From a virus (taxonomy: Duplodnaviria > Heunggongvirae > Uroviricota > Caudoviricetes): a DNA stretch of 64,000 nucleotides. Below, one piece after another: positions 3,802 through 60,400 of the stretch. The stretch lies in the IMG/VR virus record IMGVR_UViG_2645727901_000008; one strand, written 5' to 3'. Both the position numbers and the translations under genes were made by a program. The notes beneath the pieces were generated by a model, which worked only from the letters and a program-made list of their open reading frames with translations, was not told the DNA's origin and made no database searches. How positions within the stretch are numbered: the first letter of the stretch is position 1; every line of letters starts with the position of its first letter.

Positions 3802-6800
3802 TTAGGCCGCATCGGCGATTATTTTACGCAATTCATCTACCGAGTAACGCGTAGATACCATCCATGCAGGACGGTCAAAGTTCACATCAGCAACCGGGTT
3901 TGCTTCAAAATTCCAGAAACGCCCGCCAATCTTCTTAATCGCGTCTTTGGCGTTCCGTATTGTCGAGGAACCAGGTTGGTCGGCAATGAGATAAACCGCA
4001 CCGACGTCCTCGCTGACACTCCACCAGCGCCCGCGAACACGCGCCTTAGCGCGAATCGGCTTATCATTAACCACAATGATATAGTCATCATTCGCCGCTT
4101 CATCAGCTCTGGCTTCAGCCACTGCCGCCTGCTCTTCTCTTTTGCTTTCAGCCTGTTCAAGCCTTTCCGCGATCTCTGATTCGGTGGCCCCGCCGTTTTT
4201 CAGCGATACATAGTCTTGCCACGTTGCTGATTTGAGCGCATCCGGCAACTCATTCACATAGTCACCGTCTTTCAACTCACGGGCGCGGCGGGTAGCCATT
4301 TCTACCAGGCGATTAACAGAAACAGCATCAGCAAAATCGTCCTTACTAATGTGTTTTTCATCAAATGCATTGATGACAGCCCCCACCTTAATCCACTGCG
4401 CTGCTGGCGAATCCAGAGGATTATCGGCCTGAACAATGGCTAATTTCGCTCCATCGACACCATTATTAGCCAGCTGCTCCAATGCCGACCAGCCATCGGC
4501 ATCGCTGAGTGATTTATATTGCTCAAACAATGCATCGCGCCAGGCCACCAGCGCAGCTCGTGTTTTCTCAATTTTCGCCGTAATTTTCGCGGCCTTCACC
4601 TGATTAAACATCCGTTCAATGTCATCAGTGTTGCTAAAGGCTTTCATCCTGCCCTGGAATAAACGGTATGCCACCACGGTCTTCCAGAAAGATTCCAGCC
4701 CTTCTCCGGACGGTTTACGGAACAGGCTAAGAATATCTTCAGAAGTAACTTTATTAAGTGAGCGACCGGACAAACCACGCCCTGCCATCCAGTTTTCAAA
4801 CTCCTGGGAAACATCATCCATCGTGGCCTGTGACCCCCATGCCTGCATTCCCTGGATGTAATCATATCCATACAATGCCTGGAGGAATCCCTCGCCGTCC
4901 ACGACATTCAGCGGGTTATCACTGGCTTGTATTTTTGCCACTTCACGCTTCAGCGCCTCATCGTTGCCATCAGGGTAAATCCACCGCTCAGGCGCTATAT
5001 CCGATGCTCGCCCGATTTTTTGACCTATTACGCCATCATAAGCCGATGACAGTGCAATCTGACCATCATCGGTGCGATAAGCCCAGTATTTAATAGCTGA
5101 ACCACCGCCCCATACTCTACTAGGCTTCCCGGCAGTGACATTCATTACCCCATTGCGAATAGCATCATAGAACTGATCGCGCGTAAGTGTTGTTGATAGC
5201 TGGTGGCATTGAACACCACGTGCAGCTGTTTCACGCGATTCTGCAACTCCCTCTTCAAAGGTTACCGATTCAATTATCAGGTTAAAGGGCAAAAATAATG
5301 CCGTCCCCGGAGAACGAGAGTAACGACTAGCCACATCCAGCCAGGATATGCGGCACGTACACCCGCCCCTTTCCGCATCAATGGCGGTAACACGAACAAT
5401 TGCTGTCGTATTGTGATTCTCATCGATGATCGCGCGATAATGGCTGCCCTTGTGCAACAAGATATTTTTCTCAGTGCGTACATACTCCTGTGGGTTCTGC
5501 AATACATCGGCATCAAGCTCCAGAACCCCGGCTTTAATCGCACGTTCCAGATCACCACGAGAACGTTTCATAACGGTGTCAGCGTCTTTAGCTCTGGTGA
5601 TCGCAAAGCGTAGCTCCCGCACACGTTTTCTGTAGTCTCGCAACTGTTCCAGAACATATTTCTGCCCGTTCCTGTTCGTCCCCGCTTTAATCAGGTCGTC
5701 AAGATTGCGCTGGTAATGCTCTACCTGCTCCATCGCGCTTTTCAGTTCTGTCTCCATCATGCCGATATCTTTCCCGGCAGCATTCGCCGCTTTCAGGTAG
5801 TTATCGAGAGCATTATTGGCTTCGCGTAGGGCTTTCAGTTTCAGACGTTCTTCACGCTCTTGCGCCTGACGACTCATGATTGCACGGCGTTCTTCCGGAT
5901 TTGCCGCCAGCATAATGGCGCGTTCATCTGCGTCATCCGCATCACCATTGGCGATCTCTGACATGTCGGAGGTCATCACCATATTGATCCAGTCCTTCTT
6001 ACGTTTCAGCGTATCCAGACGGAAGTCATCAAATGTGCCTTTGCCACAATAGTAGTGAACATTGACCTTTTCTTGTGGTGAGCCTACCCGAGCGCCGCGC
6101 CCATTACGTTGGTCGATACTGGCAGGAGTCCAGGGTAGTGTCAGATGGTGGATATCGGTTGTCCCGATGTGCAAGTTAATACCTACTTCAGCCTTCTTGT
6201 TACAGATTATGATGCGCGTGCGACCTTCGTTATAGTCGGCGGCAATACCTTCCATGCCCTCAAGGCCAGCATCATTTTTAGCTGAGAGATAATCCTCATA
6301 TTGGGCAAGTTTGCTGTAGTAGGTTTCCCATGCACCTTCTTTGTATTCACCGTTTTTATTTGGCGTAGGTTCAGTCGGCTTATTCACCTTCTTCAGCTTG
6401 ACGCCGCCAGCCTGGCTAACTGTCGTCGCATTGATAATGCCTATCTCCTGCTCCGGCATTTGCAGTGCACTGGCAATAATACGGCGCAGCTTCTGGTGCT
6501 GGGCTTTTTCATCAATGAAGACGATTTGTTTACCGTTCTTCAGACCTTCACGAAGGTTTTCGATCAGCGCGGCATACTTCGGCGGGATGGGGTGTGATAC
6601 CTGCTGCATATCAATACCGGCAGCCGCAATGGCCTTCAGTATTTCAGCTTCCAGTTCAATGCCAGCACGTATTTCAACATGCGACGGATGTTCGCTAAAG
6701 GTGGTCTTCACTACCTTGCTGGCACGCGTACTGACCAGCCCACCAGCGCCATCTTCTTCGGCCTCGTCTACATCATCTGCCACTTTACCGCCAGCTACTT

Positions 6801-9800
6801 TTGGCAGGGCATCAGCAATAGCTTTTACCTTGTCTGCAAGCTCAACGGGGAACTGGAATGTAATCGCACTGGCATACAGATCAGGATCTATAGCAACCTT
6901 ATCCATGTCGCGGATGATGGAGAAGATGAAATCATCCGGTTTTTCGTTTGTGATATGCCCGTTTTCATCGACCGTCAGCGCATCTTTACTACTTAACTCC
7001 TGTGCACGCTTACGAAGTTCTTCGTAAATGGCCTCTTGCTCTCCTGTCATCGGGATCTGCAAGGTATTCTCGACAATATCAGGGATTTTTACCGTCGCCC
7101 CGACGTCCGCAGCAGTCTTCAGAGTAGTCCAGCGATGGAAAATACCACGCAGACCATCCAGGTTCTGGAAGCCCACCAGTCCCTGCTTCTCTTCCACCTC
7201 ACCGGAAATTTTCTGAACCTGAACTGTGGCTGTTTTACCGAACACGCGAACGAAATCATCCGGCGTAACAATACCCATGCGCATCCACTCTTCCTGCGGA
7301 ATGACAGTAGACAGCATGTTGAAAGCATCAATCGGGCTGTTCACCAGCGGTGTTGCCGTCAGCATAACCACACCACGCCCGTTGTTGCGTTTCATCATGT
7401 ACGCAGCTTTTACAGCCATGTCGCGGGCCATTTTGGATACTGCCGGGTTAGGCAAATATGCCAGTTGCCCCGCTTCGCGCCCGGCGCTAAAGGAGTTGCG
7501 GTAGTTATGCCCTTCGTCGGCAATTACGCTATCGAAGTTCATATCCTCAAAGTACGGGATATTCTGCTTCTTCGTTGTACCGGTATTTGCGGCCTGGTCC
7601 TTAATCTTGTTCTTCTTCTGCGCGTCACGGTGTTTGCCAGATGCCAGGTCAAGACGCCCCATTTCCACAGCATTAAAGACCGCTTGCTGTGAGTTTTCCT
7701 CAATGGTTTCTTCTCGTAGCGGGATAGACGCGAATTGCTCTTTTGTCATGATGACCGTTCGCCAATTTGACGACGGGATCATGTTCATGCGCTGAACGAT
7801 AACGGCGCTGGCGGACTCTTTCACAACATTTCTGGTAAGAGCCTGCCCGTTACTGTCGAGGCGTGGTTCGCCATTTTCATCAAGCACCGGCGCGGTCAGA
7901 ATATTTCCGCTGTCATCACGAACTTCATCCAAACCGATAAACATCATATTGGCGAAGGCATCAGAACTGTAGAAACTCTGTGCCTCGTGATACCAGTTCT
8001 GATAAACCGCCTTCGGAACAACAATACACGTGCGTTTAGTGCGACCTGTTTCGAAGTTATACGCCTCAAGCGCAAGCGCGGTCGTGGTTTTACCCAGCCC
8101 GGTGCCAAATCCCATGATGCCGCGCCCATCTTCTGATAAGCGACGAACTTCTTCATTCTGATAAGTCAGAGGAATGCGCTTCCCACTAATCCCCTCCAGG
8201 CCAAGCGGTGCGTCAGAATGCGTAAACGGGATGAAGCCATTAAATGCGTCGTTATAGTCGCGGGCTATCTGATCAGCCTGCGGGTGAGTGCGTAACCAGT
8301 CGTTGAAGCTAATTTCCAGTTGAGCAATCTTATCCAGGTACTCGTTAGCGTTCTGCCCACGCGGTTTAATGCCGTTCAGGTAGTTTTCTAACTGGTTCAG
8401 GAAGCCGTCTTTATTGTTGGCCTTCTTGAACTCATTCCCGTTTTTGCCGTTTACGGTTCGTAGTTGATAGCCAGTAAATACCCCGTCCTTACCTTCGTAA
8501 TCGTCCGGAGATACCAGAATGCCGTCCTCAACCTTAAGGTCGGGTTCTGTATACTTAAACTCGTCATAGCCCTGCTCTGCCAGGAACTCTTTTATCAAGC
8601 GGCGATCCAGCCAGCGGGCGTTCAGATTAACGGTGACTTTATTTAGTGGCGTGAAAATGCGTTTCTCTTCGATTTTCGCCAACTGACGCTCAAAGTTCGC
8701 TTTCTGCTCACCTGTTGACGCATCACGCCAGCCCACCAGCAATGCTGTTTTGGTTGCAATATCGCCGCTGGTGGCGCGGTCCATCGGCAGCAGGCAGCCA
8801 TACCCATCAATAGCGATATCATCAAATTTCGCCAGGTATTCCAGAGCAGCATCGTCGTCTCCTGGCAGTTCGCCAGCAAACGCCTCACGAAAATCGTCCA
8901 GTGTGATTGGATTAAGTGCCACGTCACTGAAAAGGTGGGTTACAACTTGTTCCGGGCGTGTAAAGTCAATACCGGCAGCACCATCCGTTACATCAAGTCG
9001 TCCAGCAAGGAGGTCAGAAGCAGAGCCGTCCTGTTTCACGTTGCCAGTGAAAGTCATCCAGTTTTTAGCGCCAGCTTCAGCAATCCCATTCAGCTTAATC
9101 GCGTGCGGCGGACCATACTTCGCAATTTCGGCTTCCGCCAGGCGCGCGGCATCAGCAAGTACATCATCAACATTTTCCCCCAGATTACGCTTATCAAGCG
9201 CCTTGTTGATCAACTGCCCTATCAGTGCGCCGCGCATAACGCGTTCTCTGTCTTTTTCTCTCTGCTTGCCAGCAAAGCGAATCATTGCCGCTACTTCATC
9301 ACTGATAACCGATGGATAGTCGGACGCGATCGCCGATATCTGGTCCCATGACAACGCCAGAATGCCATTTGTTGACTGAAACGCGATCTGCAGATCACCA
9401 AACGTCGTAACACCATATCGATTTACATCAAGCGCGGAGGATTTGGTTGTCGCGTCCTTGACCCATTTCAGACCATCAAACTCATGCCAGATGCCGCCTA
9501 CAAGGCGTTTATCGCCCACTTTCGCGCCCTGCCATGCCTGAGTAGTTACGCCAAGCAAATCCCAATTAATGCGGCTTTCAAAGCGGCGCGATAGAGCGGT
9601 TTTCATCGACTCATTGGATACACGACCGTCCTTTTTCACCACCAGGGTATTGCGGAAGCTGGTACGCTCCATATCGCCGTAAACAAATCGCTTCCCTTCG
9701 GTTGTAAACCATTTTCCTTTGAGGAAGGTATCCCAAAGGACGTTTGCCGATTTGAGCGTTGCATCATCCGTGTCGGGGATCATCTCCAGGAAGGTTTCCG

Positions 9801-10641
9801 GGTGTTTACGCAATACCCATACGTCCACCACGGTATCTGTACCGGATTCGCTGAACGTACCAGAAGGCATACGATGTGCGCCCAAAAATTCCGCTTTACG
9901 GCTGACTTTATCGCGCAATTTTTTGTATTTCGTACCATCGGTCATGCCATTCGGCACCACCAATACAATTAGTCCACCAGGTTTAACCTTGTCGATCGTG
10001 CGCAACACAAAGTAATTGCCAACGTTCTTCTCGTTTGCATATGCCGGATCAAGCCCGGCAACGCCGGAACGCCCTTCACCAAACGGTACGTTACCAACAG
10101 CGTGGTCATACATTGCGTCTTTCGCCGCCAGCGCCTCAAACGCCCCGATATTCACATCGTCTTCCGGGTGCAAAAGCTGGTTTATTCGACCGGAAATCGG
10201 AGACAGTTCGGCGCTGGTCATTATCATGCCCTGCCGTTTTGTCTCCTGGAAAATACCTGTGCCCGCTGATGGTTCCAGTACGTGCCCACCATCAATACCG
10301 TAGTCAGCAAACAGATCCCATATACCTTCAGCCATAAACTGTGGCGTGTAGTATTCGTATTGGCTGCCCTCACCATCTGTCAGGCCGCCTTCACCGGTAT
10401 ACCCGGCAAGAATCTGACGTTGTTCGTCAGTTAATTTCGCCCCATCGAAGCCGGGCGGAAGGGAATTAAGAAGATTTACTGCGGCATTGTTTGCTGCCCG
10501 GCGTGTTTTCTGAATACTGACGCCATCGGCTTTCCTGACGCCAAAGGTCGCAACAGCACGTAATTTATGCAACCGACTAACAATTTCAATCAGTTCGCCT
10601 AAGCTGGAGGCTTCACTGATTGAATGAAGTAGTTTGTCCAA
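3802..10641 (-). CDS. darB: DarB-like antirestriction protein (N-terminal methyltransferase + helicase domains)
   Basis: 2279-aa ORF. SAM-binding-like VLEPSAGTGIF, Walker A GLGKTTTALA and DExH box VIADEGHNYRN are present. Size and architecture match P1 DarB (about 2255 aa, from memory). Start is TTG with SD gaggggg. Confidence 0.8.
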   Translation of the reverse strand: MDKLLHSISEASSLGELIEIVSRLHKLRAVATFGVRKADGVSIQKTRRAANNAAVNLLNSLPPGFDGAKLTDEQRQILAGYTGEGGLTDGEGSQYEYYTPQFMAEGIWDLFADYGIDGGHVLEPSAGTGIFQETKRQGMIMTSAELSPISGRINQLLHPEDDVNIGAFEALAAKDAMYDHAVGNVPFGEGRSGVAGLDPAYANEKNVGNYFVLRTIDKVKPGGLIVLVVPNGMTDGTKYKKLRDKVSRKAEFLGAHRMPSGTFSESGTDTVVDVWVLRKHPETFLEMIPDTDDATLKSANVLWDTFLKGKWFTTEGKRFVYGDMERTSFRNTLVVKKDGRVSNESMKTALSRRFESRINWDLLGVTTQAWQGAKVGDKRLVGGIWHEFDGLKWVKDATTKSSALDVNRYGVTTFGDLQIAFQSTNGILALSWDQISAIASDYPSVISDEVAAMIRFAGKQREKDRERVMRGALIGQLINKALDKRNLGENVDDVLADAARLAEAEIAKYGPPHAIKLNGIAEAGAKNWMTFTGNVKQDGSASDLLAGRLDVTDGAAGIDFTRPEQVVTHLFSDVALNPITLDDFREAFAGELPGDDDAALEYLAKFDDIAIDGYGCLLPMDRATSGDIATKTALLVGWRDASTGEQKANFERQLAKIEEKRIFTPLNKVTVNLNARWLDRRLIKEFLAEQGYDEFKYTEPDLKVEDGILVSPDDYEGKDGVFTGYQLRTVNGKNGNEFKKANNKDGFLNQLENYLNGIKPRGQNANEYLDKIAQLEISFNDWLRTHPQADQIARDYNDAFNGFIPFTHSDAPLGLEGISGKRIPLTYQNEEVRRLSEDGRGIMGFGTGLGKTTTALALEAYNFETGRTKRTCIVVPKAVYQNWYHEAQSFYSSDAFANMMFIGLDEVRDDSGNILTAPVLDENGEPRLDSNGQALTRNVVKESASAVIVQRMNMIPSSNWRTVIMTKEQFASIPLREETIEENSQQAVFNAVEMGRLDLASGKHRDAQKKNKIKDQAANTGTTKKQNIPYFEDMNFDSVIADEGHNYRNSFSAGREAGQLAYLPNPAVSKMARDMAVKAAYMMKRNNGRGVVMLTATPLVNSPIDAFNMLSTVIPQEEWMRMGIVTPDDFVRVFGKTATVQVQKISGEVEEKQGLVGFQNLDGLRGIFHRWTTLKTAADVGATVKIPDIVENTLQIPMTGEQEAIYEELRKRAQELSSKDALTVDENGHITNEKPDDFIFSIIRDMDKVAIDPDLYASAITFQFPVELADKVKAIADALPKVAGGKVADDVDEAEEDGAGGLVSTRASKVVKTTFSEHPSHVEIRAGIELEAEILKAIAAAGIDMQQVSHPIPPKYAALIENLREGLKNGKQIVFIDEKAQHQKLRRIIASALQMPEQEIGIINATTVSQAGGVKLKKVNKPTEPTPNKNGEYKEGAWETYYSKLAQYEDYLSAKNDAGLEGMEGIAADYNEGRTRIIICNKKAEVGINLHIGTTDIHHLTLPWTPASIDQRNGRGARVGSPQEKVNVHYYCGKGTFDDFRLDTLKRKKDWINMVMTSDMSEIANGDADDADERAIMLAANPEERRAIMSRQAQEREERLKLKALREANNALDNYLKAANAAGKDIGMMETELKSAMEQVEHYQRNLDDLIKAGTNRNGQKYVLEQLRDYRKRVRELRFAITRAKDADTVMKRSRGDLERAIKAGVLELDADVLQNPQEYVRTEKNILLHKGSHYRAIIDENHNTTAIVRVTAIDAERGGCTCRISWLDVASRYSRSPGTALFLPFNLIIESVTFEEGVAESRETAARGVQCHQLSTTLTRDQFYDAIRNGVMNVTAGKPSRVWGGGSAIKYWAYRTDDGQIALSSAYDGVIGQKIGRASDIAPERWIYPDGNDEALKREVAKIQASDNPLNVVDGEGFLQALYGYDYIQGMQAWGSQATMDDVSQEFENWMAGRGLSGRSLNKVTSEDILSLFRKPSGEGLESFWKTVVAYRLFQGRMKAFSNTDDIERMFNQVKAAKITAKIEKTRAALVAWRDALFEQYKSLSDADGWSALEQLANNGVDGAKLAIVQADNPLDSPAAQWIKVGAVINAFDEKHISKDDFADAVSVNRLVEMATRRARELKDGDYVNELPDALKSATWQDYVSLKNGGATESEIAERLEQAESKREEQAAVAEARADEAANDDYIIVVNDKPIRAKARVRGRWWSVSEDVGAVYLIADQPGSSTIRNAKDAIKKIGGRFWNFEANPVADVNFDRPAWMVSTRYSVDELRKIIADAA

Positions 10642-10792: not shown

Positions 10793-11278
10793 ATGGCAAA
10801 CATTGAACCTCGCTGGCTAATTGAAGCCCGTAAGCACATTGGCCTGACTGAAATAAAAGGCGCTAAACACAACCCTGAAATCGTTCAGTTCTGGCGCGAC
10901 ATCAAGCGCGGCGGAATTAAAGACGATGAAACGCCGTGGTGCGCAGCATTTGTCGGTGCAATGCTGGAACGTGTAGGCATCCGCTCAACAAGATTTGAGT
11001 CGGCAAAATCCTATCTGGATTGGGGCGAGAAATTAGATACACCGGCATACGGATGTATCGTTGTATTTACCCGCGTAGGCGGTGGGCACGTAGGCTTCGT
11101 TGTCGGACGCCGTGCCAATGGCGATCTGCTTGTCCTGGGTGGGAACCAGGGGGATGCTGTTAATATTCGCGCATTCCCAACATCAAGAGTGTCTGGCTAT
11201 CGCTGGCCTGCTGGCGAACCACGCAATACCGCTCTGTTACCAGTCGGAGACGCAGCAACCTCAACTAATGAGGCATGA
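10793..11278 (+). CDS. CHAP/NlpC-P60-like peptidoglycan hydrolase (candidate endolysin)
   Basis: 161 aa with a Cys...His arrangement (TPWCAAFV ... GGGHVGFVV) typical of CHAP-like hydrolases. Good SD; late-type motif upstream. Confidence 0.55.
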   Translation: MANIEPRWLIEARKHIGLTEIKGAKHNPEIVQFWRDIKRGGIKDDETPWCAAFVGAMLERVGIRSTRFESAKSYLDWGEKLDTPAYGCIVVFTRVGGGHVGFVVGRRANGDLLVLGGNQGDAVNIRAFPTSRVSGYRWPAGEPRNTALLPVGDAATSTNEA

Positions 11279-11280
11279 AA

Positions 11281-11302
11281 AAAGCCCCGGCCAGGCCGGG
11301 GC
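11281..11302 (-). terminator. intrinsic terminator ending the immI-like operon
   Basis: Hairpin gccccgg/ccggggc; the U-run follows it only in the minus-strand orientation. Confidence 0.5.
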
Positions 11303-11310
11303 ATCACGCT

Positions 11311-11511
11311 TCAATTCACGATCCAATCATTACCGACTATATCAGCCGTCGATAAATCAACTTCCCGGATCTGGAGTCCATTAATACAAAACCATCCGGT
11401 AGTAGAGTAATTATCAGGCCAGGCCCATACACCAACACTCCATGCTTTACGGCGGCACACTTCAGCCTGTCCTTCCCTGATTTTTTTTACCGCCTGCATG
11501 ATGTCCATCAC
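11311..11511 (-). CDS. hypothetical small protein
   Basis: 66-aa ORF whose start overlaps the stop of the Rha-like gene; followed by the terminator. Confidence 0.3.
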   Translation of the reverse strand: MMDIMQAVKKIREGQAEVCRRKAWSVGVWAWPDNYSTTGWFCINGLQIREVDLSTADIVGNDWIVN

Positions 11512-12215
11512 TCACCTCCCCAACCGATCACCTGGAATTGCCCCATTTTGGGGTGATACCAGCGTTTTCCTCGGTGTTCAGCCTCCGACATCATCCGGTT
11601 AAAAGCATTCATGAAGGGAGATAAGGCCACGATGGAACGACGCGACAATACCCCCTCTGGAGTTAAAAACTCATGTGTATCGGTGGGGATCCGGTAAGCG
11701 TTAACCAGGTTGCGACATTTGGCTTCGGTCAGGCCGCATTTTGCCGCCAGCTGGCGGTAGCCAATGTAACCTTCCGGCATGTTGCCCTTCTTGATTTGCT
11801 CGACGGTTTCTACCACCTGGCTAACCTTTGACTCAACAACATGAAGCCGCTTTTGCTGCTGAACTGCATTTGCAGCCATTGCGGCGATCATCTCTATTTC
11901 GGTCAACGGCTGGCGTGCTTGTTCTTCCAGTTCGCGCCAGCGGTCCACCAGCCGGGCGGTGAATTCGGGAGAGAGCTGCGCGACGACGATAATGCTATCG
12001 CGCTTGCCTTGCTCGCCTTCGAAGACGTAAGCCTCAACACTACGTCGTAGTCCTAAGTTATTGATTTTTTCGAAAACCTCAATTTGAGGACGAACAATAA
12101 CGCCACCTTTGTCTAATGTCTCAATAGTGCGTTTCACATTGTCATGACGTTTTCCCACCAGCTCCGCGATCTCAATGCTGGTCATTGATGGCTTTTCGAG
12201 AATGCAGATATCCAT
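11508..12215 (-). CDS. Rha-family phage regulatory protein / antirepressor-like
   Basis: N-terminus MTSIEIAELVGKRHDNVKRTIETL matches the Rha/antirepressor N-terminal pattern. Sits in an operator - leader - small ORF - ant-like arrangement. Confidence 0.6.
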   Translation of the reverse strand: MDICILEKPSMTSIEIAELVGKRHDNVKRTIETLDKGGVIVRPQIEVFEKINNLGLRRSVEAYVFEGEQGKRDSIIVVAQLSPEFTARLVDRWRELEEQARQPLTEIEMIAAMAANAVQQQKRLHVVESKVSQVVETVEQIKKGNMPEGYIGYRQLAAKCGLTEAKCRNLVNAYRIPTDTHEFLTPEGVLSRRSIVALSPFMNAFNRMMSEAEHRGKRWYHPKMGQFQVIGWGGE

Positions 12216-12439
12216 CAGTGAGCCTCCGCAATGCCGGGATTGGTAATATTGCGATACCAGGGATTGGTGTTTGGTTGTGGGGAAGTGGAGAAACGACCAG
12301 TGAGAACGCCATACTGATCAGGGATCAGAGAACGGGCTTCTTTTTCAGTTGCGGCAATTGCGAAGTGATCGCAGTGTTTTTGCAGGGAGTGAAAACGCCA
12401 GATGAATTCTGGACGTGAGCAAGGATTGGCATTAACCAT
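12215..12439 (-). CDS. hypothetical small protein (icd-like position)
   Basis: 74-aa ORF whose stop overlaps the start of the Rha-like gene. The position resembles P1 icd upstream of ant; no sequence motif supports this. Confidence 0.3.
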   Translation of the reverse strand: MVNANPCSRPEFIWRFHSLQKHCDHFAIAATEKEARSLIPDQYGVLTGRFSTSPQPNTNPWYRNITNPGIAEAH

Positions 12440-12787
12440 AGTTACGGCCTCACTAACAGGTTTAACAACCTGCTACCCGCTGCTAAACAGGTGGCAGGAC
12501 GTGACGGGGTTAGCAGACTGGCGTTAGTGAAACCAGCAGGCCGAAGCCTCCCCATCACGCCCCACCATAATTTGGGCGTAACGCGGTTTTACGGACACAA
12601 AAATACCGCAATATCGGATATCTGCGGTTGTCCGCACTAACATTCAGGCTGCTAAACCCGGTCGCAGAATTTGCTACGACGACATGAATATAAGCCTGAA
12701 AACATGGAAGATCAACTAAAAATTTCAGCAATAGATGACTTCAGTCGATGATGCAGATCATACATTCCGATTTAGAAACGGCAAATT

Positions 12788-12805
12788 AATTTTCTAACAC
12801 AAAAT
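12788..12805 (+). promoter_or_regulatory. C1-operator-like motif copy (aattttctaacacaaaat)
   Basis: Motif at the head of the about 350-bp leader preceding the small ORF and Rha-like gene. Confidence 0.45.
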
Positions 12806-12853
12806 GTCGAGCGAGCATTTTCCGATCATTGGGATGTTTTGTAGACGCACAGG

Positions 12854-13816
12854 TCACCCCCTAAAGCCAGCCGGGATTGACCAATCCTCACGGTCAAATT
12901 CAGACCGATAGCCACGCTGTTTCATCAGGTCAAAGGCTTCACCAATGGTTGCACACCCCTGGGAGCCAGAATAATCCATTGAGAAATCCAGGGCACTGGA
13001 TTGTTTAGGCTTATTCACTGCGGTAGCGGCACTACGTATCCATGCAAATTTTTTTGCCAGCTTTTCAGCGGTACGATACAGAGCCTGCCGTTTTGTGTGC
13101 CCCTCGTCTGAACGACGCTTTGCAGCTCTCGCTTTTGCCGCCGCCAGGCAGTGGTTGGTCTGTTCTTCCCTGATTACTGTTTTTTTATCCAGCACCCCGT
13201 TATCCGTTTGAGAACTATCTGCTGGTGAAGCCTTTGGCTGAACCGCGCATGATCTTTCTCTTCTTTTGGCTATAGAGTGACTCTTATTTTCTATTGGCTG
13301 TTCATTTTGAACATGGGGGGACTTGTTCAATTTGAACAGGGGGTTCCCAGTTTCAAAAAAATAACGAACCTTTGAAATCAACTGCTTAACCAGTTTTGTG
13401 GCGTTGGCAAATTTGATGCCCTGCTTACCCCCTATCTCCATTGCTACATGAATGAAGTGGAGAAATTGTGTCGTAAACCGATATACGTTACACACCTGGG
13501 CATTGTTATTCGCTACCTGATGTTGCTTAACAAGCATTCCGCACTTCGTCGCTTCAGCAAATGCCCGGCGTACAGTAGAAATACTGCGTCCTGTAATCTC
13601 GGACATATCAGCATATGAGCGACGGATCATGTATTCATCGGTAGACCCTGCCAGGTTGGCGAACTCGGCAATAATGGCGCTATGTGAAGGGGAAAGAAGA
13701 CCGCTATGACGAGCAAAAAAACTCAACTGATGACCTTTGATTTTTTTGTGGTATTCAGTGTTGTTTTTATACTCAGAAGTGTTGAAAGTTACTGAAACTG
13801 AATTTAAAATATTCAT
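12854..13816 (-). CDS. HTH DNA-binding protein (RepL-like or regulator)
   Basis: 320 aa with a helix-turn-helix-like segment MSEITGRSISTVRRAFAEATKCGMLVKQ and a basic C-terminal half; function not resolved. Confidence 0.5.
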   Translation of the reverse strand: MNILNSVSVTFNTSEYKNNTEYHKKIKGHQLSFFARHSGLLSPSHSAIIAEFANLAGSTDEYMIRRSYADMSEITGRSISTVRRAFAEATKCGMLVKQHQVANNNAQVCNVYRFTTQFLHFIHVAMEIGGKQGIKFANATKLVKQLISKVRYFFETGNPLFKLNKSPHVQNEQPIENKSHSIAKRRERSCAVQPKASPADSSQTDNGVLDKKTVIREEQTNHCLAAAKARAAKRRSDEGHTKRQALYRTAEKLAKKFAWIRSAATAVNKPKQSSALDFSMDYSGSQGCATIGEAFDLMKQRGYRSEFDREDWSIPAGFRG

Positions 13817-13985: not shown

Positions 13986-14005
13986 ACTATGTTAGAAATT
14001 TAATT
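13986..14005 (-). promoter_or_regulatory. C1-operator-like motif copy (reverse orientation)
   Basis: Reverse complement reads aaatttctaacatagt; adjacent to the palindrome agtgta-tataaa-tacact. Confidence 0.4.
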
Positions 14006-38912: not shown

Positions 38913-39404
38913 TTATTCTGCCCAGTTGTAAACAATACGCAGAGAAGGTTTAACAACAGCCGTTACGTCTTCGGAAGAGAAGTCCACGGCGTCGGAATAC
39001 ACTTTGCAGTGAGAATATGTGCGGATCAGACCTTTATGGTTACCGCTATTCGATTCAGCCGCCGCCTGTAAGGTAATTTCCAGATATTCTTTTCCGTATA
39101 CCATCTGTTTTACAGCGGCGAGAACTGCGCCTTCGATAGTTTCCGCGCATGTGACCTGAAATTCACCAGAGTTGCGTAATGGTCCGTGCTGGTTGAATTT
39201 CATGCCACCAGGGGCGTAATCCTCCACATCTTCACGTGTCATTTCTGGTAACTGAGCTGTACGAACTAGTACAGACAGATGTTCGTAACCCTTAATGGTC
39301 ATCCAATATTCAGAACCAATAAGTTTTTCGCCTGCAGCCAGGTTTTTATTAAACCGGGATTTTAGAAAGGCCATATCGGCTTTTGTATTTGCAAAACCGG
39401 ACAT
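38913..39404 (-). CDS. putative tail tube protein
   Basis: 163 aa, downstream of the sheath gene as in contractile-tail modules. Position and size only. Confidence 0.4.
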   Translation of the reverse strand: MSGFANTKADMAFLKSRFNKNLAAGEKLIGSEYWMTIKGYEHLSVLVRTAQLPEMTREDVEDYAPGGMKFNQHGPLRNSGEFQVTCAETIEGAVLAAVKQMVYGKEYLEITLQAAAESNSGNHKGLIRTYSHCKVYSDAVDFSSEDVTAVVKPSLRIVYNWAE

Positions 39405-39412
39405 AAATACTC

Positions 39413-40003
39413 CTACACAAAAACAGATGAGATATTGCTACGGTTGATCGATGTGTTACCGCTGCATTGCAGGGTTACCGTGTTATGAGTGAAATAGCCT
39501 TCCGGTGTGCGCGGGGCGTCCAGTTGGTAACTCACGCTTTTGATAACAACGTCGGTAAGGGCTATGTTCCTACCTATGTTTAACGTTACTGTCTCCGGGC
39601 GACGACCGAATGGCGCTACATTGTTCAGTTCCGGCGATTCCATCTTCAGCAATGCTGTAATGGCTGCGTTCACTTCAAGTTGCGCATTCACTGTCGCCAT
39701 GAAATCAATTACCAGATTAAATTCAGGCGGTTGCTGACCTTCCCAAACAAGCATTGAGTTGAAGAGGGTTTTTGTTGTTACGCCGGTTGCGGTCTGAAGC
39801 GTATCTGCAAGAGAGCCAGCCGCAGCGCTAATACCGCCAAGCAAACCTCCTACTGACTGGTTTTCAAATGGTGATTGCCACATTGATGACAGTTCTGCGG
39901 TAGATCCTTCACCGATATAACCGACGACCATATCCTCTGAAGAGAGGATATAAACCTTCATTAACGGACTTATTCCGTCAGGCATTATCGCGCCGCAAAT
40001 CAA
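39413..40003 (-). CDS. tail structural protein (hypothetical)
   Basis: 196-aa ORF in the late operon. Confidence 0.45.
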   Translation of the reverse strand: MICGAIMPDGISPLMKVYILSSEDMVVGYIGEGSTAELSSMWQSPFENQSVGGLLGGISAAAGSLADTLQTATGVTTKTLFNSMLVWEGQQPPEFNLVIDFMATVNAQLEVNAAITALLKMESPELNNVAPFGRRPETVTLNIGRNIALTDVVIKSVSYQLDAPRTPEGYFTHNTVTLQCSGNTSINRSNISSVFV

Positions 40004-51956: not shown

Positions 51957-52862
51957 TTATCGTTCTGCTTCACCGCCAATGGCCTCCACCAGCGCGTTAA
52001 ACAGTGCAGATAATTCGCCCGTAAAGAGCACGAAATCAGCATCAAATCGTTGTGCTACATCCTCCCGGTCGATATCGTCGTTCTGGTCATAGAGATCATC
52101 ACAGAATGTCAGGGCTTTGATACTCATATCATCGTTGACTCTGAACGACGCACGGTCCATCCAGTTAATTGCAACGGTCGTAGCTACTTTCCCCGCCTCA
52201 ATGTGAGACATAATCTCGTCGGACTGTAGATCAACTTTGTTGCAGCGAACGGCACCACCATTATCGAGCAGACCCTTTAATGTGGCGTCTTCACCTGCTG
52301 TAAATCCGGCAGGGAAGCCGCTTTTAAACCACTCGGTCATTGTAATTTCCAGCGGTTCGCGTGGTGTGAATGGAATGACAGGCAGGCTGCCGAGCGACTT
52401 TCGCAATAAAGCCAGCTGGTCCTCTGCCTTTTTGGCGCTGCTTGCCTCAACGAATACCAGATGGTTGCTGCGGTCGATCAGGATTTTGGCGAGTGATTTT
52501 CTCGTGAACGCGCGAGGCAAAAGTGAATGCAGGACTTCATCTTTAAGACTGTCTCTTTCCGTTTTCTTCAGCTTGCGGGCTTGCTCTTCTTCGAGTTTCA
52601 GGACTTTTTTCTGCAACTCTTCCTTGAGCACCTGCGAGGGGAGAATTTTTTCTTCTCGCTTATGCTGTATTAGCAGAAAACCCTGGTATTCATGGGTGAG
52701 GTTGTCACCAAGAACAGGTGTCCAACCGACTTTAGCTGTGTCCTGAGAACCGCAAGGAGTAAACACGAATTTGCTAAGAGCATCGGATACTTCTGCGGCA
52801 CTCCAGTTAACTTCACGTGAAAGACGATAGATGAAGATGTTTTTGAAAGCGACTGATCTCAT
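51957..52862 (-). CDS. rdgC: recombination-associated protein RdgC (P1 HrdC-like)
   Basis: …VYRLSR…FTPCGSQD…EEKILPS…[22 protein letters not shown]…[13 protein letters not shown]… is collinear with E. coli RdgC as recalled. Confidence 0.9.
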
Positions 52863-52871
52863 GTTTCACCA

Positions 52872-52910
52872 ATTGTGTTAGAAAATTCTATTCAATTATC
52901 TAACACAATT
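52872..52910. promoter_or_regulatory. palindromic pair of C1-operator-like motifs
   Basis: ccaattgtgttagaaaatt…aattatctaacacaattgg: two motif copies in inverted orientation directly upstream of the rdgC start. Confidence 0.5.
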
Positions 52911-52921
52911 GGATGTGTTTT

Positions 52922-53575
52922 CTATCCCTTCTTGAAATCAAAGTTGCTTGCGATGGCCTGGAAGGTGCCTCCAGCCTTGAAATCAATATTTTCGTCGGCT
53001 GTCACAGTAATGTTTTTGCCATTAACGCTGATGTTATCGGCTGATTTGACGTTAACACTCCCTCCCGCATTCACTACTACATCAGCCGGACCAATGATGT
53101 ATATCTGCCCTGATTCATTCATTCCAATCCTTGAGCCTGCTGCCGTATTCGCTATTTCATATCCACCGCCAGCCGTTCGCACTTCGAGCACATTGTTGCG
53201 GTGAATCACGAAATCTTTTGTCGCCGAAAATTGCGGGCGGGGAGGCGCTCCGTCTACTTCTGGTGGCGTCCAGCCGCTACCATTGCCTGACGCCTCCGGC
53301 GCGACGTTTGGTACTCCTCCAGGCGCATCCTGAGCTGCGCCAACTATCATTGGGCGTCTGGTATCAATTCGACCATTAACATCCAGATAAGGAAACTCTA
53401 CCCATACCAGGTCGCCTTTTACTGTAGGTACAAACGCGTTACCTATGGGTAACAGGTATTCTGCCCAGGGTAGATCGTCATCAGGAACGCCATTCCAGTC
53501 TGGTAAAACACGGACCTGAGCACGCATAAGCCCTGCCGGGTGCACAGTTCCAACAATTTGCGCTCTACGCTTCAT
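52922..53575 (-). CDS. baseplate spike/hub protein (gpV-like)
   Basis: The N-terminus resembles the gpV-type baseplate spike domain, followed by a repetitive beta-helix-like C-terminus (…VVNAGGSVNVKSADNISVNGKNITV…). Confidence 0.45.
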   Translation of the reverse strand: MKRRAQIVGTVHPAGLMRAQVRVLPDWNGVPDDDLPWAEYLLPIGNAFVPTVKGDLVWVEFPYLDVNGRIDTRRPMIVGAAQDAPGGVPNVAPEASGNGSGWTPPEVDGAPPRPQFSATKDFVIHRNNVLEVRTAGGGYEIANTAAGSRIGMNESGQIYIIGPADVVVNAGGSVNVKSADNISVNGKNITVTADENIDFKAGGTFQAIASNFDFKKG

Positions 53576-59274: not shown

Positions 59275-59467
59275 AACAAAGCCTCTCAGTCATAACATGG
59301 GGGAAACTGTATGCAGGGTGTGAAATGCGAGAAACAGACAGGCCACCAGTTCAGGGGGATGTGGTTCATAAATCCCCTCACTGGTGACAAGTGACTTTCA
59401 TTAATCTTTATGCGGGGGCCAGCTTCATTTGCTGGCATTAGATTAAAAATTAAACGGAGTGAATGAC

Positions 59468-59601
59468 ATGGATGTTATTCTAGAATTGTTAAAGCTTATT
59501 GATCTGTTTATGAACGCCTCATTGACCACTCAAATACTGGCGTCAATATTTTTGTTACTCTTCTACCTGGTATTGAGGGAGTTAACAAAGCTACTAATGT
59601 G
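59468..59601 (+). CDS. unannotated small hydrophobic peptide (44 aa)
   Basis: Below the ORF-track cutoff. ATG 59468 with SD ggag; encodes MDVILELLKLIDLFMNASLTTQILASIFLLLFYLVLRELTKLLM, one predicted TM helix; the stop abuts a convergent gene. Confidence 0.3.
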
Positions 59602-59602
59602 A

Positions 59603-60256
59603 TCAAAGTATCACGGTATCTTCATCAACTTCTTTCCCAGCCAGTGACTTTGGCTGGGAGGTGCCTGCTTTAACTTTTTCATGCCCAATAATGGAAAGGA
59701 ACGAAGCGAGTATGCCTGTTTTTTGCTCTTTCTCGACTGTACCGGTCATCTGCTCTACATAATCTGCACTGGCAACGTTGTGGTATACGGTCGCGTAGCA
59801 ACACAGGATCATCAGAATATGCTCCGGCCTGATATCCTGCCAGTTCACCCTGTAGACTTCTTCTCCGTTACCGTTGTATTCGGTATCAACGATAGAGTCG
59901 GGGATTTCGAAAGCACCTTTGTTATTTTGCGGCAGGGATAATAGTTTCTGGAGTTTTAACTCTCTGTATCTTTCCATCCCGACGATGATTGCTGCTCTTC
60001 CATCGGCATGACGGGTCTTGAGAGTCACCTGACTTGCTCCGGTGCCAGCGGAGATCGTTGGCGTAATTTCGTCTACCAGTACCTTAAATTTGCTTTTCCG
60101 CAGGGCTGCTATAGCTGGAGGAATTTTTTGCTTTTGCTCCAATGCTGACGCGGGAAGGGGTTTTACTTCGTTAATAATGAGAGCACCGTCTTTCAGTATT
60201 GCAGTGAGCATTTGAGGCTTGCTGGTGGTCAGGCTGAATATTGCGATCTTTTCCAT
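59603..60256 (-). CDS. hypothetical protein
   Basis: About 218 aa from ATG 60256 (MEKIAIF…) with strong SD ggaggaagg; a 15-mer late-type motif lies 145 bp upstream. Confidence 0.5.
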   Translation of the reverse strand: MEKIAIFSLTTSKPQMLTAILKDGALIINEVKPLPASALEQKQKIPPAIAALRKSKFKVLVDEITPTISAGTGASQVTLKTRHADGRAAIIVGMERYRELKLQKLLSLPQNNKGAFEIPDSIVDTEYNGNGEEVYRVNWQDIRPEHILMILCCYATVYHNVASADYVEQMTGTVEKEQKTGILASFLSIIGHEKVKAGTSQPKSLAGKEVDEDTVIL

Positions 60257-60400
60257 TGTCCTTCCTCCACGGATGACGGATACAAAAAAAGGCCGCACAT
60301 GGCGGCCTGCTTTGGCGTTATGACTCCCTACCGCGCTTCGGCTGAAAGTTAATCGTCAAAAGAACCTTCAACGGGAGCCGTTAGCGCGATGGATTATGTG

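Follow-up and report, generated by a model that had tools for sequence, protein, structure and literature searches.

Does the plasmid prophage described here control its lytic growth by the antisense RNA immunity of phages P1 and P7, and if so, with which protein as its output? This question is raised by the minus strand of positions 11281..12805 in the viral record IMGVR_UViG_2645727901_000008 (Caudoviricetes), of which a stretch of 64,000 nucleotides, called the window below, was analyzed. The original prediction, made from the letters alone, likened the order found there (an operator copy, a long leader, a small open reading frame (ORF), a Rha-family gene, another small ORF and a terminator) to P1 immI. 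This analogy turns out to be real homology. As judged by alignment, the region is a true homologue of the P1/P7 immI operon, with about 91% DNA identity to both P1 and P7 over the leader and the 5′ part of icd, with matches to the Rfam families C4 and c4-a1b1, and with a 74-amino-acid product 61% identical to P1 Icd. It is very probably a functional immI homologue under C4 control.

Homology of the operon to P1 and P7 immI

Positions 11200-12900 are 93.5% identical in DNA to Escherichia phage D6 over their full length and 99.3% identical to Escherichia coli plasmids of ~92.5 kb such as NZ_CP032875; these identities place the window in a D6-like plasmid prophage. The D6 record (NC_050154) annotates repL, an icd-like orf19, orf18, orf17, a convergent peptidoglycan hydrolase and darB, and its gene order and orientation from repL through icd and ant to orf17 are identical to those in the window. 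The synteny in relatives that the original prediction had named as a test exists, as the order is kept in D6 and in 110 plasmid records. Among 5,426 complete E. coli genomes, 96 contain the full module and 767 contain parts of it. The feature itself is already known: for the D6-like plasmid pYU39_89, a region related to immI that comprises c4, icd and an antirepressor has been published, together with a second c4/icd copy (PMC6799933), and icd and ant are annotated in the D6 GenBank record. GenBank, RefSeq and PLSDB records list protein-coding genes only at the operon. The additions made here are modest and mildly new, namely exact RNA coordinates (Table 1), a mixed P7/P1 code of C4, and a pool of such codes common to P1-like and D6-like elements.

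From the operator position to icd, the window has the order of P1/P7 immI (Op51, P51a/b, a1 b1, c4, a2 b2, icd, ant1/ant2), and in both cases b2 lies over the ribosome-binding site of icd and icd overlaps the next gene. The two differ downstream, where P1 and P7 encode Ant1/Ant2 with a KilAC domain and the window encodes a non-orthologous 235-amino-acid protein of the Rha/Roi type. The window also has an additional coupled 65-amino-acid ORF, lacks kilA, and carries repL upstream instead of downstream.

Table 1. Coordinates of the immI-type operon and its control elements in the window
Feature	Position	Strand	Remarks
C1-type operator-like site, ATTTTGTGTTAGAAAATT	12788..12805	-	3 nucleotides upstream of the -35 of the first promoter; position of P1 Op51
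Promoter-like TTGCCG-16-TATGAT	12757..12784	-	Consensus scan; P51a/P2c4 analogue by position
Promoter-like TTGATC-17-TATATT	12687..12715	-	Consensus scan; homologous to P1 P51b/P1c4
a1b1 element, two hairpins	12635..12693	-	a1 TTAGCAG 12649-12655; b1 GTTAGTG 12635-12641
Hairpin with U-run, CCGCA...UGCGG UAUUUUU	12599..12627	-	Between a1b1 and C4; terminator-like
C4 antisense RNA gene	12487..12572	-	Rfam RF01695, 70 bits (gathering score 45), E 9e-13
Downstream C4 targets	12448..12486	-	a2 TTAGCAG 12480-12486; b2 GTTAGTG 12451-12457
icd, homologue of a cell-division inhibitor, 74 amino acids	12215..12439	-	Stop overlaps ant start (TGATG)
Rha-domain Roi-like protein, 235 amino acids, putative antirepressor	11508..12215	-	ant position
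65-amino-acid ORF (D6 orf17)	11311..11508	-	Coupled to ant via TGATG; last ORF of the operon
Intrinsic terminator	11278..11302	-	8 G-C pairs, 3-nucleotide loop, T6; fold -18.2 kcal/mol

The leader of roughly 350 bp had been described as free of ORFs of 60 amino acids or more and as a possible source of antisense RNA. Both statements hold: the longest ORF in 12440-12787 has 58 amino acids, and the C4 and c4-a1b1 models, RNA families which date from 2010 (PMC2864571), are both matched above their Rfam gathering scores, the latter (RF03163) at 12641-12693 on the minus strand with 51.5 bits against 46.7. By alignment to the annotated c4 of P1, the mature 77-nucleotide C4 is predicted at 12490-12566, with its b′ loop CACTAAC at 12523-12529 and a′ CUGCUAA at 12510-12516. 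Its sequence agrees with P1 c4 at 74 of 77 bases and with P7 c4 at 75 of 77 (counted by eye on the alignment), and its acceptor-like stem and 3′-terminal CCACC are as in P1 save for one change from G-U to G-C. RNA folding had been proposed as a check of the leader; C4 adopts the anticipated structure, a long stem enclosing two hairpins, at -40.7 kcal/mol (z -4.24), and none of 200 shuffled sequences was equally stable.

The pairing sites a1, b1, b′, a′, a2 and b2 all fall on the annotated sites of the fully annotated P1 record, and both a1/b1 and a2/b2 are perfect complements of a′ and b′. The complementary elements noticed earlier are a1, a2 and a′ of this C4 system. They are real, with GCTGCTAAAC occurring twice in the window (12479 and 12648) against 0.10 copies expected, but two of the positions given for them were slightly out, as the second copy lies at 12648 and not at 12641, and TTAGCAG lies at 12510-12516 and not at 12508. 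A second complementary set had been missed altogether, consisting of GTTAGTG at 12451 and 12635 with CACTAAC at 12523-12529. Among these sites, b2 overlaps the Shine-Dalgarno sequence of icd (GAGG, 12448-12451).

Between a1b1 and C4 stands a hairpin with a U-run, near-invariant across P1, P7 and D6, which a simple terminator scan missed because its loop is long. It looks as if it would yield an IsrK-like short RNA of ~80 nucleotides, and the Rfam isrK model (RF01394) matches 12599-12680 on the minus strand, spanning a1b1 and the hairpin, at 46 bits, which is under the gathering score of 50.

For the small ORF after the leader, the similarity to P1 Icd (E 8e-27) is accompanied by a match to phrog_1426 (132.9 bits) and by the Icd-like annotation of the same ORF in D6 and in plasmids. 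Its predicted overlap with the start of the Rha-family gene is borne out and amounts to one shared base, 12215. FtsZ is the target of P1 Icd, whose active core spans residues 12-51 (PMC11897509).

Co-variation of the C4 pairing sites

Whether these complementarities are maintained in relatives was addressed with a search pattern in which the C4 stems were fixed and both loops were left free. This retrieved 120 loci from IMG/VR, which contain eight b′ types and two a′ types in 14 combinations; 116 of them, in 68 distinct sequence contexts, have complete flanks and make up the co-variation set. Exact complements of both a′ and b′ are present upstream (a1, b1) and downstream (a2, b2) in 116/116 loci, so that the covariance analysis proposed for the leader finds the loops and both target pairs changing together in every relative. 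A non-cognate a-type complement was seen in 0/116 loci, and non-cognate b-types on both sides in 0/812 comparisons, with 21 occurring upstream only. This natural co-variation strongly supports pairing between C4 and its target RNAs, and with 116/116 cognate and no non-cognate pairs on both sides it makes a clean data set for RNA-RNA pairing.

When the target sites are read as a code, P1 has TTGACAG at a and GTTAGTG at b, P7 has TTAGCAG and GATTGTG, and D6 has TTGACAG and ACTTACG. The window combines TTAGCAG, the P7 type, with GTTAGTG, the P1 type. Among 18 leader positions that separate P1 from P7, 11 are P7-like in the window, and the P1-like ones are exactly the six b1/b′/b2 bases and one further base close to b1; the leader is therefore P7-like in its backbone, with three sites changed in concert. 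The combination of P7-type a and P1-type b is present in 10 loci, and the mixed code is therefore not unique to the window. D6 differs from the window in both a and b, with matching changes at all six sites, and the window and D6 are therefore predicted to be heteroimmune at immI.

The b-types, of which eight have been seen, are far more diverse than the a-types. A base beside a′ (12506; CCCC or CCCT) tracks the a-type in four aligned sequences, with C in those of the CT type (window and P7) and T in those of the TC type (P1 and D6), and this suggests two a lineages.

Codes are not confined to one kind of operon. Among the relatives, c4-icd is followed by a P1-type Ant in 67 loci and by the Rha type in 19, each with several C4 codes, and all five codes seen with the Rha type also occur with the P1 type. 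Two fixed layouts recur, c4-icd-ant1-kilA-repL and repL-c4-icd-antRha-orf65. It may tentatively be proposed that C4 specificity is a two-part code of at least eight b-types by two a-types, drawn from a pool which is shared by heteroimmune P1-like prophages with a KilAC-type Ant and D6-like prophages with a Rha-type Ant, and which would link them in a cross-immunity network; we consider this extended proposal doubtful rather than probable.

Control of the operon, its output and competing explanations

In P1, C4 is processed by RNase P, and Rho-dependent polarity acts on ant. According to the P1 model, the operon is repressed by C1, ant is fully silenced only when C4 is also present to block translation of icd, and expression of ant depends on icd (PMC8198154). 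By analogy, transcription in the window would start at two sigma-70 promoters, the upstream one of which adjoins the C1-type operator, and would pass through a1/b1, a leaky terminator-like hairpin and the C4 precursor, which would be processed to the 77-nucleotide RNA. C4 may then pair through b′ (a hairpin loop) and a′ (a single-stranded joint) with a2/b2 on the same or a sister transcript. Pairing at b2 would cover the ribosome-binding site of icd, so that icd would stay untranslated, and ant and the 65-amino-acid ORF would remain off in the lysogen because ant is translationally coupled to icd, with Rho polarity as a possible further cause as in P1. If C4 were outrun or titrated, for instance by the a1b1 decoy RNA or when a phage carrying another code infects, Icd would block FtsZ, and the same release would allow the Rha-type protein to be made and to counteract C1. 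C4 very probably controls icd and the genes behind it. Its processing, the Rho polarity and the decoy role of a1b1 are carried over from the work on P1; a competition of a1/b1 with a2/b2 for C4 has been suggested (supplement to PMC2864571), and a decoy function of a short a1b1 RNA would be consistent with IsrK of Gifsy-1.

The operator copy which had been placed at 12788 on the minus strand is present, and its motif is enriched in the window, with four copies of ATTTTGTGTTAGAAAATT at up to three mismatches against 0.10 expected and eight copies of the core TGTGTTAGAAA at up to one mismatch against 1.36 expected. It agrees with the 17-mer operator of P1 at 11/17 positions (by eye), and its core resembles but is distinct from the core ATTGCTCTAATAAATTT of P1/P7 immI. 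This divergence is in line with that of the c1 homologue, which is 21% identical to P1 C1. The homologue is found at 59351-60388 of NZ_CP032875, a complete plasmid 99% identical to the window, and lies outside the window; tblastn of the window with P1 C1 and Coi gave no match. The same plasmid has 14 copies of the motif, among them one 30 bp upstream of c1 and others upstream of ref, repL and c4, positions which match Op99, Op2, Op53 and Op51 of the P1 regulon. From the work on P1, the C1 repressor is expected to act at the putative operator 12788-12805.

Additional operator-like cores were seen elsewhere in the window. One, at 13988-13998 on the plus strand, corresponds in position to P1 Op53, with the repL homologue (12854-13816) downstream of it. 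Two others face each other 12 bp apart (52874-52884, plus strand, and 52897-52907, minus strand) between an rdgC-like gene (51957-52862) and a baseplate-like gene (52922-53575), and the pair is reminiscent of the bivalent C1 operators of P1.

Several observations weigh against a functional immI operon with an antirepressor as its product. On the upstream side, these are the low similarity of the c1 homologue and its location outside the window, and the assignment of the first promoter by position only, since 12757..12784 is not alignable with P1. Promoter-like sites are not enriched (3 found, 2.2 expected in shuffles), and homology supports the second alone, as 12687..12715 aligns column for column with the annotated P1c4 of P1 (TTGACC...TATAGT). 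No terminator was found by scanning the interval between the repL stop and the immI operator (12806-12853), and read-through from the repL promoter into c4-icd-ant is therefore possible. On the side of the protein, BLASTP of the 235-amino-acid product against P1 Ant1 gave no similarity (E 0.3), the ANT/KilAC model PF03374, on which P1 Ant1 scores 106.5 bits, is not matched, and a Foldseek search of the structural model against the PDB gave no match at E up to 0.001 and weak winged-helix similarities only. Moreover, Roi and Rha are DNA-binding proteins. Considered as a possible hidden KilAC domain, the C-terminal domain gave no Pfam match at E up to 10.

The points on the protein side would be accounted for if RNA control works as described and the Rha/Roi-like protein is a DNA-binding regulator or a host-directed lytic effector, like Roi of HK022/HK97 and Rha of phi80/P22, with an output different from that of P1. 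Such a role would suit the match of residues 11-98, an N-terminal winged helix, to Phage_pRha (PF09669; 36.8 bits, cutoff 29.9), as well as the AlphaFold2 model (mean predicted local distance difference test score (pLDDT) 85.9), in which a long helix connects two winged-helix-like modules and the weak Foldseek matches are MarR-type regulators. It would also suit the names given to the protein in RefSeq (“Rha family transcriptional regulator” or “DNA-binding protein”) and the D6 record, which calls orf18 “anti-repressor Ant, similar to HK97 Roi”. The gene, however, sits precisely at the ant position after c4-icd in 19 loci, and the best PHROG families of the protein are annotated as anti-repressor, led by phrog_63 (“anti-repressor Ant”, 165.5 bits); the protein is 91% identical to D6 gp109. 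In distant homologues, furthermore, the C-terminal domain (~residues 105-235) stands behind pRha, ORF6N, KilA-N or Bro-N, and in one of them (P0153) it follows a region 39% identical to residues 104-210 of P1 Ant1; phage ANT/KilAC regulators are reported to carry interchangeable domains at their N-terminus, pRha and Bro-N among them (PMC9043618). We thus regard the regulator or effector role as possible but less probable, and lean slightly toward antirepressor activity on the grounds of position, PHROG annotation and domain shuffling. This activity is inferred from the slot and architecture of the protein, and it is from position only that the protein would be taken to inactivate the D6-type C1. 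Of the original prediction of a Rha-type antirepressor, the Rha domain is confirmed.

Two other explanations bear on the module as a whole. It might serve mainly in competition between elements, with C4 silencing icd-ant of incoming phages whose code matches fully or by half, and with control of its own switch being secondary. The use of the same codes by P1-type and D6-type operons, the strict three-site co-variation over 14 combinations and the P7-like leader that is P1-like at its six b bases and one other would fit this, as would the attribution of P1/P7 heteroimmunity to small immI differences (PMC6906374). Control in cis is fully intact, however, since a2/b2 match the C4 of the element itself, and competition would complement C4 control of the operon and not exclude it; as the main role of the module it is unlikely. 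That the plasmid carries the module as an inactive remnant is very improbable. The location of c1 outside the window and the many P1-like plasmids with damaged immI (PMC6906374) would allow it, but the three ORFs are intact, neither the operator nor the terminator nor either promoter-like site is missing, and the six pairing sites are exact complements. In addition, the module is kept at 95-99% identity in many ~90-kb plasmids and in the infectious phage D6, and the complete plasmid at 99% identity does have a c1 homologue. A functional immI homologue under C4 control thus accounts best for the operon.

Downstream genes, related systems and biological meaning

The last ORF of the operon, predicted at 66 amino acids after the Rha-type gene, is present and has 66 codons when read from a GTG (to 11511) or 65 when read from the ATG annotated in D6. 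It is 98% identical to D6 orf17 and belongs to a family to which no function is assigned (phrog_7385, 164.7 bits), and a search of the database for homologues gave three clusters only. It accompanies the Rha-type ant in 9/9 loci with full flanks and is naturally fused to a Rha-type Ant in one homologue (P0122), which argues for a functional link between the two. The Tad2-like/DUF2829 model (PF11195) covers its full length at 15.0 and 16.5 bits, under the cutoff of 25, with an hhalign probability of 2%, and BLAST found no similarity to a true Tad2-like domain protein that this plasmid family encodes. Its structural model is poor (pLDDT 69) and found no match in the PDB by Foldseek, and a profile search of PDB sequences gave nothing relevant. 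A Tad2-like anti-Thoeris identity may therefore be taken as a lead, not as a finding.

A strong intrinsic terminator closes the operon as predicted, at 11284-11302, its 8 G-C pairs being followed by a T-run. The operon has it in common, tail to tail, with a convergent gene for a CHAP-domain protein (10793-11278, plus strand). Directly downstream of this hydrolase gene is an ORF of 2279 amino acids (3802-10641, minus strand), which is described as “similar to P1 darB” in D6 and as an SNF2-related protein in RefSeq.

The Rfam scan of the whole window gave one C4 and one a1b1, and thus no second C4. D6-like plasmids have a second isrK/C4/icd-like locus outside the region covered by the window, at 38989-39481 of NZ_CP032875 (L124), in which an isrK match of 62.7 bits at 39390-39468 (minus strand) is directly followed by a C4 of 77 bits. 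The loops of the two C4 RNAs differ, and cross-talk between this locus and the C4 of the window is not predicted. A RefSeq coding sequence for a 39-amino-acid “ash family protein” (39223-39342) lies largely within the second C4 RNA (39259-39346) and is probably a false gene call. This second C4 locus matches the P4 cI region at 72.5% identity. The CI immunity RNA of P4 resembles C4 in that it is a small RNA processed from the leader of its own operon and controls the genes that follow by pairing with repeated complementary sites. It acts by premature transcription termination, and immA of N15 is a system of the same kind. The P4 CI system is not known to have an icd/ant pair.

Another related arrangement is isrK-orf45-anrP of Gifsy-1 in Salmonella. 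As in the window, the leader specifies a short RNA that ends at a terminator of its own and has its complement in a processed RNA just downstream, and translation of a small ORF is coupled to an anti-repressor-like gene (PMC4825925). The mechanism there is one of activation, the short IsrK activating the coupled orf45-anrP in trans (PMC4825925), and the isrK match in the window is, as noted, below the gathering score. IsrK is complementary to the processed downstream RNA STnc1160, and the paper makes no mention of C4 or P1 (PMC4825925); because of this complementarity and because the isrK model matches a1b1, IsrK appears to be the counterpart of a1b1 in a C4 system. Some records of Stx phages annotate isrK and C4 RNAs side by side.

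The biology described here is that of textbook P1 immunity. The region governs whether a plasmid prophage stays quiescent or enters lytic growth, and which related phages meet immunity, in D6-like and P1-like phage-plasmids that are common in E. coli and Salmonella. The practical value lies in exact coordinates for RNA parts that are unannotated in the records, in the co-variation data set, and in the observation that C4 codes are combinatorial and common to P1-like and D6-like elements. If pairing at a single site gives partial repression, the decision between lysis and lysogeny of incoming P1/P7 relatives would be modulated where a D6-like element is resident, and the reverse would also apply. 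This would amount to RNA-based cross-immunity between unrelated repressor systems, with codes that evolve by coordinated replacement at three sites.

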